Of a DNA stretch of 37,588 nt, positions 1,884 to 31,545 are shown one piece after another. Position numbers and translations under genes: made by a program. The DNA is from a virus (Duplodnaviria; Heunggongvirae; Uroviricota; Caudoviricetes), in the IMG/VR virus record IMGVR_UViG_2563366827_000004, positions 1 to 37,588 of that record. The stretch is one strand, 5' to 3'. Position 1 is the first letter of the stretch. The number at the start of each line of letters is the position of its first letter. The notes under the pieces were generated by a model. The model made no database searches and was not told the origin of the DNA. It was given only the letters and a program-made list of their open reading frames with translations.

Positions 1884-3731
1884 TTAAAAAAACTCTTTTC
1901 CTGTTGTAAACATGCCTTCGGGAAGACGCGCACCGTTAACTGAAGAAAATATAGGACCATAATATTGCTTGTTATAGCTTTGTTGAAATGAAATATATCC
2001 ACCACCATATCCGTTATCTGACATATTTACTTGCGAAAAATAACAATTAATTGTTGACGCATCAATATCTCTAAACTGCTGCATGAATCCGCATTGGCCA
2101 ACAACAACATCACCATCATCTTCTTTTTTTGTTAAAATAGGAAGGTGAATCCAGTTAAAATTCCTTGCGCTCGTAGCCATATGTGTATACACGCGCTCGC
2201 AAATAATATCATCACCAGATGTTTTATTTATTGCATAATTTGTCACGTTTGCTCCATCGCCAAATATAGTTTCAGCAACATAGCTATATGTAGATGACGA
2301 AACTGTAAGCGTTGATGCTGTATGTAGTGTTACATGCCTTGATAAGAGCAATTTAGGAGCATAACCAGAATCAAGGTTAAAGGATGCATTTTCTGTCCTC
2401 AACCTTTGAAGAAAATCACTATGACCACCATGGTATGTACCGAAGAACTTTCCAGTTGATAATTCTTTTGCAGCAAACTCTGTTGCTCCATTCCCACCGA
2501 AGTAATATGAAGGCCCCCCATTCACAAAAGGAGTTATTGTTGCTATAAAATTGTCATAATCTAGTAATTCACAACATCCAAGGCTAAAAACGTTTAGCCC
2601 AACGAGATTTGCAGGTTGAAGCGTTGTCGTATCTGTATTTTCAACTTTAAGATACCAAGTTCCTCCAAGTCCATTTATTTCAATATCAATAGGAAGTGGT
2701 GGCTGACCACCTGGTAATATTTTTGTGTCAACGATCTTTTGCGTTGTCCAGTCAGTGTTGTTTCTGCTTATTGATATTGTTACTGACTTACTTGATGCAT
2801 TAGAGCATGCAAGTCTGACATGCGCTATGCTATTTGTTAACATATATGTTACATAAGCGTTTGTGGAAATTGAATAAACTTGAGGTGTGTTAAGGGTGAA
2901 ATCACCTTGTTCTGTTTCCGCGTGTATAGCGTCATCTGTTTTAGAAAAGCCATACAATGTACTTATTTGAGATTCAGTAAATGAAGATAGGGAGACGCCA
3001 GTGTCACTTTTTGTATGTGGTGATAATTTTGCGATAACTGCATCACTTACCATATATACACTTCCAGGCCTAAAAGGTGATGCCCCGCCATAGTTATTCG
3101 AGTCTGATGGTGAAACCTCATTTGTTACTCTATGAGAAATATATTTTCCTTTCCCATGACATCTTTTACTTATAATATAAAAGTCATTAGAATTTTCATC
3201 TTTGACTATTGCTTTTATGTGTGTTGTTATTGTAGGTGATGTTGGGGGGATGATTGATGTCACAAAGTTAACATCTATAGATTTTCGCACATTAATAAAT
3301 TCATCATCTATACTAGTAATTTTATCTTTTAACGTTCCATCTTCATATCCAATATTTTCAGTCCCATCAGGACCTGCGAGAGACTTTGATAGTTGATCCG
3401 GGTCATACTTCAGAACATTCGGAAAATAGAACTGCTGCGCACCATACGCATCATAAACAGCCATAGAGTGGCCTTGCACGGTTACAAACTTGGCAATCTG
3501 TCCGTTATATACCGGATATCCAGAAGCGTTAATGATGATTGGTTGCGAAACAGGAACGTGAGAACCGTCTTCATTTTCCACATAAACCTGAATCTGGTTT
3601 TCATGATTTACCGGGTCAGTGTCAATTTTACCGATATAAATTTTACCATTAGCTACGGCTTTAAAAGAACGAGCCATAGTGAAGAGTTGCGAAGGCATTC
3701 CTATAACCACATTTGGTGTTATATTAGTCAT
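1884..3731 (-). CDS. Tailspike protein with P22 gp9-like N-terminal head-binding domain and divergent receptor-binding body
   Basis: From the internal Met at 3731 the first ~110 aa (MTNITPNVV...RSFKAVANGKIYIGKIDTDPVN...VQGHSMAVYDA...VLKYDPDQ) closely match the recalled P22 tailspike N-terminus. GGA RBS upstream. The rest does not resemble P22. Confidence 0.85.
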   Translation of the reverse strand: MTNITPNVVIGMPSQLFTMARSFKAVANGKIYIGKIDTDPVNHENQIQVYVENEDGSHVPVSQPIIINASGYPVYNGQIAKFVTVQGHSMAVYDAYGAQQFYFPNVLKYDPDQLSKSLAGPDGTENIGYEDGTLKDKITSIDDEFINVRKSIDVNFVTSIIPPTSPTITTHIKAIVKDENSNDFYIISKRCHGKGKYISHRVTNEVSPSDSNNYGGASPFRPGSVYMVSDAVIAKLSPHTKSDTGVSLSSFTESQISTLYGFSKTDDAIHAETEQGDFTLNTPQVYSISTNAYVTYMLTNSIAHVRLACSNASSKSVTISISRNNTDWTTQKIVDTKILPGGQPPLPIDIEINGLGGTWYLKVENTDTTTLQPANLVGLNVFSLGCCELLDYDNFIATITPFVNGGPSYYFGGNGATEFAAKELSTGKFFGTYHGGHSDFLQRLRTENASFNLDSGYAPKLLLSRHVTLHTASTLTVSSSTYSYVAETIFGDGANVTNYAINKTSGDDIICERVYTHMATSARNFNWIHLPILTKKEDDGDVVVGQCGFMQQFRDIDASTINCYFSQVNMSDNGYGGGYISFQQSYNKQYYGPIFSSVNGARLPEGMFTTGKEFF

Positions 3732-24677: not shown

Positions 24678-26054
24678 TCATACGTCCGCCCCTTGTGCAT
24701 ATCGTCTGCCACGCGCAGCAGGTGCATTTGATGCTGTGCAAATCTGTCTGGCTTCATCCTGGTCACATGCAACAAAGTGTCCGTTGCAGAACCGCTGGTA
24801 AACCGTACCAAGTGAGCCAAAACGGTTTTTTGTCACAATGATTTCAGCAAATGGTGCGGCGCTACTGTTCTCGTCATATACCGCTTCCCGATAGAGCATG
24901 ATGATTGAGTCTGCGTCCTGTTCAATGCTTCCAGAATCACGCAAATCTGCGTTTGTCGGGCGTTTGTTTGGTCGCTTCTCAACATCGCGCGAAAGCTGAC
25001 TCAGGGAGATAACAGGCGTTTTCAGGTCTTTCGCCATCGCCTTCAGGCTTCCGGAGATGTGAGCAATTGCGAGGTCGTTGCGGTCTGCTTTCGGCTTCTC
25101 AATCAGGCCAAGATAATCCGCCATGATGAGTGACAGGTTTGGATTTTCCTGTTTATGCCGTTCTGCGATTGAGCGTATTTCTTCGACCGATAACCGCGAG
25201 GCATCGACTACCCATACATCCAAATCTGCAAGCTGACTCATGCCGTTAGCAACACGCGCCCAGCCTTCGTCATCCATCGATGCAGGATTTCGCAGTACGC
25301 TAACCGACATCCTCCCGGCGTTGGCAATGCTTCGCTCTGCAATCTGCAATGCGCTCATTTCCATCGAGAAAATCAACACTCCGCGCCTGACGTCAGAACC
25401 AGGAATAACGCGGCTTGCAACGCCTTCGGCAATCTTCAGCGCCAGTTCGGTTTTCCCCATACCAGGACGAGCAGCGATTATCACCAGGTCTTCCGCGTTC
25501 ATCCCTCCGGTGATGGCATCAAGTTCTTCGATTCCGGTCTTCAGGGTATCTGACTCTTCTCCGTTCCTCAGACGCCTGTCAAGCGTGTCAGTGTAGTCAG
25601 TGATGATTTCCCCTAACCGTACAGGTTTAACCTCGTCACGGGGCTTTCTGATGGCTGAAAGACGCTTTACAAGTTCATCCATCGCCTGACTCGATGCGTC
25701 GATGGTTCCGCTCTGAATTGGTTCACGCATTTCATCCATGATTTCCAGCACCAGACGGCGGTGATAGTTATCCGCGACCATTCCGGCATATCCCTTCAGG
25801 TTTGCGGCACTCGGGCAGTTTTTGCTGGTCATCAGGATTGACGTGAAATGCTCCTCTCCGCACGCCTCGGCAACCATCAGCGCATCGATTAGGTTTCTGT
25901 TTCTCGCCTGCTTGCGGATAACCTCGAAGGCTTTCCGGTAGAGCGGAATTGAAAACGCTTCCGGCTCCAGCGTTGCAAGAACGTCACTGGCGGTTGGAGT
26001 TAATCCACCAATCAGCAGGCCACCGATAACGCTCGCTTCGATATCCTGTCTCAT
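24678..26054 (-). CDS. Replicative DNA helicase, DnaB family
   Basis: 458 aa; Walker A ARPGMGKT and DnaB-like C-terminal domain; at the P22 gene 12 position downstream of O. Confidence 0.85.
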
Positions 26055-26998
26055 GCAATCCCCCTGTCTGCAAACTTCCCTTCCCGAACTCCCGTTAACG
26101 AGTCTTCTCTCAGCAGGTAATCAAAATCAGCCGTCCAGCCCGTGTCGTTGTCTCCGAAGTAAAACGGCTTGGCCTGATGCACAAACGCCCTGACATACGC
26201 TCTGAAACCGTCCACGTTTGGCGTTTTCAGTTGCGGGATGATTTTCTTCAGGCGGCGTTTTCGTTTCTCGTTGACCGCAACAGCGTGTGGCAGTCTGTCA
26301 CCGACTTCGGTGTTGTAGGCGTTCAGGAAGGATTCGTAGTCGATTCGTTCTGCCTTGCGACGTTCAGGTTTAACCTGCCCATCGCCTCCCCCATTGGGGG
26401 GTAGGGGGGTATTATTTATATTCTTGTTAATACCTTCTTGTTCATGATGTGCGGTTGTTTGTGCGGCTTCATGTGCGCTTTCATGTGCGGCATGTACGCT
26501 GAAAGCCGCGCTATTGCTGGCTTCATCATGTGCGGCATCATGTGCGGTTGTTTGTGCGGCTTCATGTGCGGGTAAATTGTCCATTTTTTGAGCATATTCA
26601 TGGTAATTTGTGATGGTTATCACACGGCCTTTTTGCTTCTCTCCATCAATGGAGATCATCCCCTCTTTCACAAAAACCTGAAGCATCCGCTCAACCTGAT
26701 CACGGCTTGCTGGCTTGCCATGTCTGTCGCATAACTGAAGACCTAAATCAGCTGCTGTCACAACCAGTTGACCGGGTTGCAGATGCCATTCATGACCTTT
26801 GAAATTCGCTTTGTATGGCTTTCTGGCGGCATTCAGGAGAAGGTTTTCCCACAGGGTGCGAAGATAAACATCTTTCGCCCATGACTGTTTCAGAATGCTC
26901 CGGTACAACGGAATGTAACCAGTTTTCTGGTTCTCCATCCTGTTGCTCCTGCGCTCGTGTGCGGCGCTGAAATCGTAGATTTTTGCTGTATTGCTCAT
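26051..26998 (-). CDS. O: Replication initiator O-like protein
   Basis: 315 aa; N-terminus [10 protein letters not shown] resembles lambda O (MTNTAKILNF); iteron array inside the gene; 4-bp overlap with the helicase gene. Confidence 0.75.
26441..26571. repeat. Origin-like iteron array (~9 tandem copies of a 12-bp unit nnTCATGTGCGG) with adjacent AT-rich block
   Basis: Tandem units seen directly; AT-rich stretch at about 26400-26440, downstream in the direction of O as in the lambda origin. Confidence 0.5.
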
Positions 26999-27000
26999 AA

Positions 27001-27273
27001 CTACCTGCCTTGACGAAAGACCTTAAGAACATCGTTAAACTGACTTACGGATATGTCTTCTTTGAGAAGCTTTTCCAGAAATGCGTTTGGAATGAACGTA
27101 TATCCCTCCTCTTTTGGTAGAGACGGGAGCAACGCCCTCGCCTCAGCCTTCAGAAGCTCAGTTCTGGCAACTTTCACAAAAGAGATTTGAGTTCTTTCAT
27201 CAATGGAACGAAGGAAGCGCAAACGCTTAGCTTCTTTGTGTGTATCAGGTGGATTAAAGCCTTTGTTTCGCAT
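27001..27273 (-). CDS. Hypothetical basic 90-aa protein between cII and O
   Basis: ATG at 27273 preceded by GAGGT; 22 bp after the cII stop and 2 bp before the O start. Taken from inside the longer track ORF 27001..27546. Confidence 0.55.
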   Translation of the reverse strand: MRNKGFNPPDTHKEAKRLRFLRSIDERTQISFVKVARTELLKAEARALLPSLPKEEGYTFIPNAFLEKLLKEDISVSQFNDVLKVFRQGR

Positions 27274-30576: not shown

Positions 30577-31545
30577 ATGAGTGAAGTAACAGATTTAGTT
30601 GTTATTGAAAAAGCAAATGCAATGACTGTATTTCAGTCTGCCGACCAGATTGAAGAAATCCTTCAAAAGGTTGAACGTGAAGTTATGTCCTTTGTGCCTG
30701 ATATCACAACGGCAAAGGGCAGAAAGGAGATCGCTTCTCTGGCGTATAAAGTTGCGCAAACGAAAACATATCTCGATGGTCTTGGAAAAGACCTTGTTGC
30801 TGAACTGAAGGAAATTCCAAAGCTAATTGATGCCAACCGCAAGACAGTGCGTGATCGCCTTGATGAGCTGAAAGCCAAGGCACGCCAGCCTCTTACTGAT
30901 TATGAGGAGGAGCAGGCGCGGATTAAAGCCGAAGAAGAGGCTAAGGCAGCAGCTGAAGCTCTCGCAAAGCAAATTGAGTCTGACCATGAAATAGCGATTT
31001 TGATGGATCGCGAATTTGACCGCCAAAGAGAAGAGGCAAGACTCAAAGCGGAGCAGGAAAAGCGAGAGCATGAAGAACGCTTAAAAAGAGAAGCTGAAGA
31101 GAAAGCCAGAGCAGAAGCCGAAGCAAAGGCAAAAGCCGAAATTGAAGCAGCAGCAAGGCGAGAAGCAGAGGCTAAGGCCGCAGCGGAACGTGCAGAGCGT
31201 GAACGCATTGAAGCCGAGCAACGAGCACAGCGCGAAGCAAAAGAGGCAGCAGAACGGGCTGAAAGAGAAAAGCAGGCGGCAATTGAAGCAGAACGCCGAA
31301 AAGCACAGGAGGAGGCAGAACGAATCCGGCGCGAGGCTGAAGCAAAAGAGCAAGCCAGAATAGCAGAAGAAAAAAGAATCAAGGACGAAGAAGAGCGTAG
31401 AGCAAAGGATAAAGCTCACCGGAAAGAAGTAAATAACAAAATACTTGCTGACCTTATCAAGGTTGGCGCATCAGAAGATGTTGCTAAAAATATCATAACA
31501 GCCATCGTAAAAGGCGAAGTATTCGCAACAAAAATAACCTACTAA
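30577..31545 (+). CDS. Hypothetical protein with a long E/R/K/A-rich helical repeat region
   Basis: 322 aa; about 150 central residues are almost only E, A, R, K, Q; globular-looking N- and C-termini; GGAGG RBS. Confidence 0.7.
   Translation: MSEVTDLVVIEKANAMTVFQSADQIEEILQKVEREVMSFVPDITTAKGRKEIASLAYKVAQTKTYLDGLGKDLVAELKEIPKLIDANRKTVRDRLDELKAKARQPLTDYEEEQARIKAEEEAKAAAEALAKQIESDHEIAILMDREFDRQREEARLKAEQEKREHEERLKREAEEKARAEAEAKAKAEIEAAARREAEAKAAAERAERERIEAEQRAQREAKEAAERAEREKQAAIEAERRKAQEEAERIRREAEAKEQARIAEEKRIKDEEERRAKDKAHRKEVNNKILADLIKVGASEDVAKNIITAIVKGEVFATKITY

Follow-up and report, generated by a model that had tools for sequence, protein, structure and literature searches.

The segment 26388-26572 of the DNA analyzed here, a window of 37,588 nucleotides (37.6 kb) that is the Enterobacteria phage CUS-3 (CP000711.1; O gene match 100% identical), is very probably the origin of replication in the CUS-3-type module. 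This reading, drawn from sequence comparison, follows from five observations: the segment lies at a domain junction of the initiator gene O, its repeats are linked to the N-terminal domain of the encoded protein, the wobble bases of the repeats are constrained, an Asp/His residue of O covaries with an A/G base of the repeat unit, and the repeats adjoin an AT-rich block that is unstable and free of polymorphism. The repeats with their AT block are almost certainly the binding sites and unwinding element of that origin, an expected feature that follows the lambda plan, with short one-directional repeats arranged in two clusters, and that has unusually strong comparative support.

Gene Context and Anatomy of the Segment

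The genes cII, cro, and cI precede O, and a gene encoding a DnaB-type helicase is the next one after it. On the O strand, the order of the elements is cluster A, a 33-bp spacer, cluster B, an AT block, and a C/G-run, as detailed below together with the genes and domains that contain or flank them.

26051..26998, minus strand: O gene, an ORF for the replication initiator (315 aa), labeled "O: phage replication protein" in CP000711.1; contains the probable origin
26576..26998, minus strand: N-terminal origin-recognition domain of O (aa 1-141), predicted as a winged helix-turn-helix from the AlphaFold model
26525..26572, minus strand: iteron cluster A, four 12-bp direct units with the core CCGCACA(T/A), from a repeat search; 3-4 units are kept in 30 + 68 related loci
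26492..26524, minus strand: 33-bp spacer between clusters A and B, containing the off-register degenerate GCGTACATG (26499-26491)
26505-26520, minus strand: spacer core CCAGCAATAGCGCGGC, common to all iteron classes
26444..26491, minus strand: iteron cluster B, four 12-bp direct units mirroring cluster A unit by unit, from the same kind of search
26411..26443, minus strand: AT-rich block GAACAAGAAGGTATTAACAAGAATATAAATAAT, candidate DNA-unwinding element, 21% GC and of low stability
26388..26410, minus strand: C/G-run ACCCCCCTACCCCCCAATGGGGG, which encodes TPLPPNGG; an inverted repeat able to form a hairpin, on the right border of the probable origin
26054..26431, minus strand: C-terminal domain of O (aa 190-315), putative helicase-recruiting module, on the basis of its identity across phages with a DnaB-type helicase
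24678..26054, minus strand: gene of the DnaB-type replicative helicase (458 aa), partner of O, with the Pfam domains DnaB and DnaB_C

The Pfam family Phage_rep_O (PF04492) matches aa 20-132 of O with an E value of 3e-15, a match that passes the curated cut-off, while the C-terminal domain has no Pfam hit; the helicase is 90% identical to gp12 of P22. The CUS-3 record CP000711.1 carries no origin annotation. A promoter scan returned zero matches, and the lone terminator-like match is at chance level. Of 5426 complete E. coli genomes, 281 (~5%) contain the segment, every time within a gene annotated as "replication protein", and many Stx2a phages carry it, with CUS-3-type O genes at 98% identity. 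Between cII and O, at 27001-27273 on the minus strand, there is a 90-aa ORF that CP000711.1 leaves without annotation and that has a sub-threshold match to Phage_rep_O (E 0.048, 14.6 bits); a small ORF is found at the equivalent position in P22 and HK544 as well.

The eight 12-bp units share the core CCGCACAT and encode aa 143-190 of O, at the junction between the N- and C-terminal domains. On the O strand, cluster A (26572-26525) reads CCCGCACATGAA GCCGCACAAACA ACCGCACATGAT GCCGCACATGAT, and cluster B (26491-26444) reads GCCGCACATGAA AGCGCACATGAA GCCGCACAAACA ACCGCACATCAT. An initial sequence-only reading of this DNA had described about nine tandem copies of a 12-bp unit; the repeats are indeed at that place, but as two clusters of four and not as one array, and the supposed ninth copy is the degenerate element in the spacer, which is out of register (9 bp instead of 12 bp from unit B1) and which relatives do not conserve. 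The same reading placed a G-run and then an AT-rich block past the repeats: both elements are present, in the reverse order, with the AT block before the C/G-run.

Exact CCGCACA sites number 10 in the window, and 7 of them fall inside 124 bp, whereas shuffled sequence gives about 5 such sites per whole window; therefore, a chance origin of the cluster is excluded. The units are direct and devoid of dyad symmetry, with no inverted repeats inside the array, and the fold of the array as ssDNA is ordinary (z -1.4). DnaA boxes (TTWTNCACA) are absent near the array, the matches in the window being solely at 3574 and 23451. A lone iteron-like 12-mer, GCCGCACACGAG, which is identical to a unit at 10 of 12 positions and encodes AAHE, is located near the 5' end of O (26954-26965, minus strand); it may reflect chance or conservation at the protein level, because the SAAH peptide also occurs in a relative with another iteron class. 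Elsewhere in the window, at 31045-31125, TRF reports two tandem arrays, made of 2.1 copies of the 15-bp AAAGCGAGAGCAGGA and 3.1 copies of the 12-bp AGAAGCCGAAGC.

The AT block contains two copies of AACAAGAA spaced 14 bp apart and is the least stable 31-mer of the O-helicase module, within the top 0.2-0.3% of the window. Its initial GAACA is invariant (37/37 loci), and none of its 33 positions is polymorphic among 77 close relatives (49 haplotypes). Taken as ssDNA, the AT block and the C/G-run form two hairpins, with z values of -3.2 and -3.8. The C/G-run is homologous to ACCCCCTTACCCCCTAAAGGGGG within the annotated rep_origin of P22, and it is regarded as accessory because several relatives lack it.

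These properties bear on the proposal that the units are O binding sites used mainly for control, i.e., for autoregulation, handcuffing, or copy control, with opening and helicase loading taking place elsewhere. Plasmid iterons serve both initiation and control, and the additional 12-mer near the 5' end of O (26965-26954) would fit a regulatory role. Nevertheless, this proposal is very unlikely, given that the array directly adjoins the least stable and polymorphism-free AT block, that this block is positionally homologous to the AT tract of the annotated P22 origin, and that the window showed no second combination of repeat cluster and AT tract.

Constraint on the Repeats and on the Spacer

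The constraint acting on the origin was measured on the "AH" class, a set of 30 genes out of 36 genomic loci, with the N-domains of these same genes as the codon baseline. The consensus of the unit in this set is NCCGC(A/G)CAT followed by three variable bases. The wobble base that precedes the core is C in 202 of 202 units, compared with 28% in the N-domains, even though the residue specified by that codon can be P, A, T, S, G, C, D, N, or Y. Likewise, the Ala codon is GCA or GCG in 193/193 cases (44% in the N-domains), and the His codon is CAT in 161/164 (75% in the N-domains). Thus, with wobble bases fixed and encoded residues free to vary, the constraint on the repeats acts on the DNA and not on the peptide.

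Variation at shorter distance was examined in 80 viral contigs whose N-domains are 99-100% identical, a set too homogeneous for covariation analysis. The distance across the origin is the same in 77 of the 80 contigs, so that polymorphism in the number of units is absent. Over 49 haplotypes, 12 of the 64 positions in the unit cores are polymorphic (19%), versus 18 of 32 (56%) among the variable positions of the units. Two haplotypes (among viral-contig loci L046-L125) display units swapped within cluster B, for instance a duplicated AGCGCACATGAA replacing GCCGCACAAACA, with the 4 + 4 arrangement maintained; such exchange suggests gene conversion among units.

The opposite view is that the repeats are a feature of the peptide alone, a flexible Ala/His-rich linker generated via slippage, and that the origin is elsewhere. 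The peptide repeat itself is real: as the sequence-only reading had pointed out, the 12-bp period is in frame and yields an AH-x-x repeat in the linker of O, a region without Pfam domain, and interdomain linkers are often repetitive. A linker selected for its residues is, however, extremely improbable, being at odds with wobble bases that stay fixed while residues change, with a synonymous GCA/GCG switch made in all the units simultaneously and tracking a residue of the DNA-binding domain, and with a copy number that does not vary in 77 of 80 close relatives. Moreover, phage L has the same layout, and its repeat cannot be a peptide repeat because successive 11-bp units fall into three reading frames.

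The spacer is conserved in both length and sequence. It measures 33 bp in 26 of 30 locus parses, the remaining four being parse artefacts caused by GAGCAT units. Its core, CCAGYxxYGRCGCGGCY, is found in 38 loci that cover every iteron class, phage L included, always in the identical frame. Here too the wobble bases are fixed (GCG in 35/38, third-position C in 35-36/38) and the residues variable. CUS-3 itself deviates from the pattern CCAGYxxYGRCGCGGC by one mismatch, and in its close relatives the core is polymorphic at 8 of 20 positions. The window contains four matches, the true site included and the others with two mismatches, a number that 3 of 100 shuffles also reach. No known motif was recognized in the core, which may be read by something common to all the iteron classes, as its distribution over loci suggests; the origin model leaves its conservation unexplained.

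Module Exchange and Covariation with the N-Terminal Domain of O

Searches with tblastn found the N-domain (aa 3-143) and the C-domain (aa 190-315) separately in other phages, with the mosaic breakpoints of O in aa 143-190. In the Klebsiella phage ST16-OXA48phi5.2, a CUS-3-type N-domain (80% identical) is joined to another C-domain and accompanied by a lambda-P-type gene, and the units are 12-bp CCGCAC repeats in a 4 + 4 arrangement; Yersinia 210.17 presents the same combination, with an N-domain 75% identical and 3 + 3 units of the CCGCAC type. Conversely, HK544 and P22 possess the same C-domain and helicase as CUS-3 together with an unrelated N-domain and different repeats. More generally, the C-domain is 94.5-98% identical in the listed phages with unrelated N-domains, all of which have a DnaB-type helicase, and it is swapped for another in the relatives with a lambda-P-type gene. 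These swaps indicate that the repeat sequence travels with the DNA-binding N-domain and not with the C-domain. The initial reading had proposed a comparison with the origins of phages sharing the N-domain of O, and had made its interpretation depend on the presence of the repeats in homologs: related loci do keep the CCGCAC units, and the repeats track the N-domain.

Distant N-domain classes, found in ENT1, "SA 1298 Kay", and several Pantoea and Sodalis prophages, keep the layout with a class-specific unit: three 12-bp units, the spacer, three 12-bp units, GAACAGAACAAGAA, and the AT block. The record of "Staphylococcus phage SA 1298 Kay" (L005, OR850084.1; 2.7 kb) encodes an enterobacterial lambdoid O, with a C-domain nearly identical to that of CUS-3 and 12-bp units CCCGATGAACCA; its Staphylococcus label is almost certainly wrong, and the record is flagged UNVERIFIED_ORG. 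Two prophage copies contain a truncated O (L010 and L040): that of Xenorhabdus ehlersii stops just past the spacer (176 aa), and the Symbiopectobacterium ORF has 80 aa; both look like decayed prophages. Most of the database proteins with a CUS-3-type N-domain (P0001-P0073) are labeled "partial" and end at about 146-211 aa. Contigs often break at the origin/domain junction, a pattern probably caused by co-resident prophages that have half of the gene in common.

The junction could also be viewed chiefly as a recombination linker, in which the AT block, the C/G-run, and the spacer are conserved for the exchange of O modules among lambdoid phages. The mosaic breakpoints at aa 143-190 and the many database proteins of the family that end at the junction, where contigs break, agree with this view, but it leaves unexplained the unit-specific wobble constraint and the Asp/His-A/G covariation described below. 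It is highly improbable as the main role of the junction and, in addition, exchange there is compatible with origin function, as a lambda-type N-domain and its iterons must travel together. The origin reading, instead, accommodates the covariation.

In 9 of the 30 loci, CCGCGCAT replaces CCGCACAT in essentially all the units, a change that is both synonymous and concerted. The motif S-R-(D/H)-x-V-x-R-M-L of the N-domain, to which Asp100 of CUS-3 belongs, has His in all nine CCGCGCAT loci and Asp in the others. A second column separates the 30 loci with a perfect split, Ala82 or Pro versus Ser. In an independent set, made of 68 distinct viral-contig proteins, His occurs with G 43 times and Asp with A 25 times, and the second column is A/P versus S/T/L. 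Overall, base 6 of the unit is A with Asp100 and G with His in 98 loci (30 + 68), with no exceptions. On a neighbor-joining tree of the 98 N-domains, built after masking both covarying columns, Fitch parsimony counts three switches (mostly 2-5 in bootstrap replicates), versus 26-36 with shuffled labels, and the closest Asp/His pair is 87% identical over the rest of the N-domain; the sample of independent switches is small (about three), and the tree could be distorted if recombination has occurred within the N-domain. Comparison across these loci shows, at the level of sequence, that the repeats and the winged-helix N-domain of O have evolved together. The covariation is a natural experiment, in which initiator and origin change specificity together while the same DNA encodes both.

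The AlphaFold (AF2) model of aa 1-141, computed from a shallow alignment, has a mean pLDDT of 76, with block means of 81-92 for aa 41-130. It places helix H2 at residues 82-88, H3 at 99-111, and the wing at 115-129; at these modeled positions, Asp100 and Ala82 would lie at the N-termini of the helix-turn-helix helices H3 and H2, respectively. A sequence search of O against the PDB returned no match, and Foldseek with the model retrieved weak matches, with a best E of 0.02 and a majority of winged-HTH DNA-binding proteins, among them MarR, CRP, RosR, CodY, CadC, and TubR. As these matches are weak and generically winged-helix, no specific mode of DNA binding can be borrowed from them, and the term "recognition helix" for H3 follows from the predicted fold class.

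Proposed Mechanism and Comparison with Known Origins

If the system works like lambda O and P22 gp18/gp12, the units would be bound by O via a recognition helix that begins with Ser98-Arg99-Asp100 (H3). Asp100 would read base 6 of the unit, the A in CCGCACAT, and a His at this position would read G; the contacts would be a hydrogen bond from adenine N6 to Asp and one from His to guanine. As direct units without dyad symmetry suggest, the binding is probably head-to-tail, unlike that of the symmetric dimers of lambda; its stoichiometry and geometry are proposed from the analogy. The two loaded clusters would then form a nucleoprotein complex able to destabilize the adjacent AT block, after which the C-terminal domain of O would bring in the phage DnaB-type helicase, followed by the host primase and polymerase. 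In Stx2a-converting phages, many of which carry the module, phage replication drives the production of toxin, and a defined origin with a predicted protein-DNA read-out offers a handle for replication assays, for the incompatibility of co-resident prophages, and for engineering.

The principle of an origin inside the initiator gene is textbook knowledge and the equivalents of P22 and L are already annotated, while literature searches turned up no account of iterons of the CUS-3 type. According to the phage L paper (PMC8022706), the principle is that each of lambda, P22, and L has intragenic iterons to which its own initiator binds.

Iteron plasmid origins resemble that of CUS-3 in having direct repeats for a winged-helix initiator beside an AT-rich element. 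Plasmid iterons are usually ~17-22 bp long and are located outside the rep gene, with DnaA boxes; the CUS-3 units, instead, are 12 bp long and inside the gene, with no DnaA box nearby.

With the lambda ori, CUS-3 shares the central location within the initiator gene, where the domains join, the AT-rich tract after the repeats, and the Phage_rep_O N-domain, so that the lambda architecture of iterons plus AT-rich element within O, recognized in the sequence-only reading, holds, as does its remark that the sequence and period of the iterons are unlike those of lambda. The lambda ori has four repeats of ~20 bp, whereas CUS-3 has eight of 12 bp, arranged as two clusters around a fixed 33-bp spacer. 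The lambda iterons possess dyad symmetry and are bound by O dimers; CUS-3 lacks such 19-20-bp dyad-symmetric iterons, which is a difference of variant and not of principle. The partners differ as well, the loader P in lambda and a DnaB-type helicase in CUS-3.

The Eru2 module of Shiga-toxin phages pairs a Phage_rep_O-type initiator with a 458-aa DnaB-type helicase, as in CUS-3; the paper describes the gene pair and makes no mention of iterons or of an origin (PMC8044961). Eru2A is 273 aa long and falls in the length class of the HK544 and P22 initiators (273 and 271 aa), in contrast to the 315 aa of CUS-3 O.

The origins of P22 and phage L are annotated by similarity or as "putative". That of P22, in gene 18 and associated with gp12, is close to CUS-3 in the helicase (90% identical) and in the C-domain of the initiator (60%), and its rep_origin occupies the equivalent junction, with a homologous AT tract and ACCCCC..GGGGG run. 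The N-domain of P22, however, is unrelated, and its repeats are four of roughly 20 bp, with the inverted-repeat elements GGTAAA..TTTACC.

The "putative origin of replication" of phage L, six imprecise 11-bp repeats in gene 18 (PMC8022706), is at a place equivalent to that of the CUS-3 repeats. It is made of short direct units, three on each side of a 33-bp spacer with CCAGTAATGACGCGGCTC, and then an AT block, and CUS-3 exhibits the same two-cluster layout with its 4 + 4 units, 33-bp spacer with core, and AT block. The unit of L is TGTCCAACGGA, with an 11-bp period and a 3 + 3 arrangement in place of 4 + 4, and the two O proteins are 22% identical. Tentatively, the origins of the CUS-3/L type might constitute a distinct lambdoid class, in which monomers would sit head-to-tail on 11-12-bp direct repeats in two clusters, CCAGYxxYGRCGCGGC would be read by a host factor or by an invariant part of O, and Asp100/His would act as a one-residue, one-base switch that keeps the origins of co-resident prophages separate.
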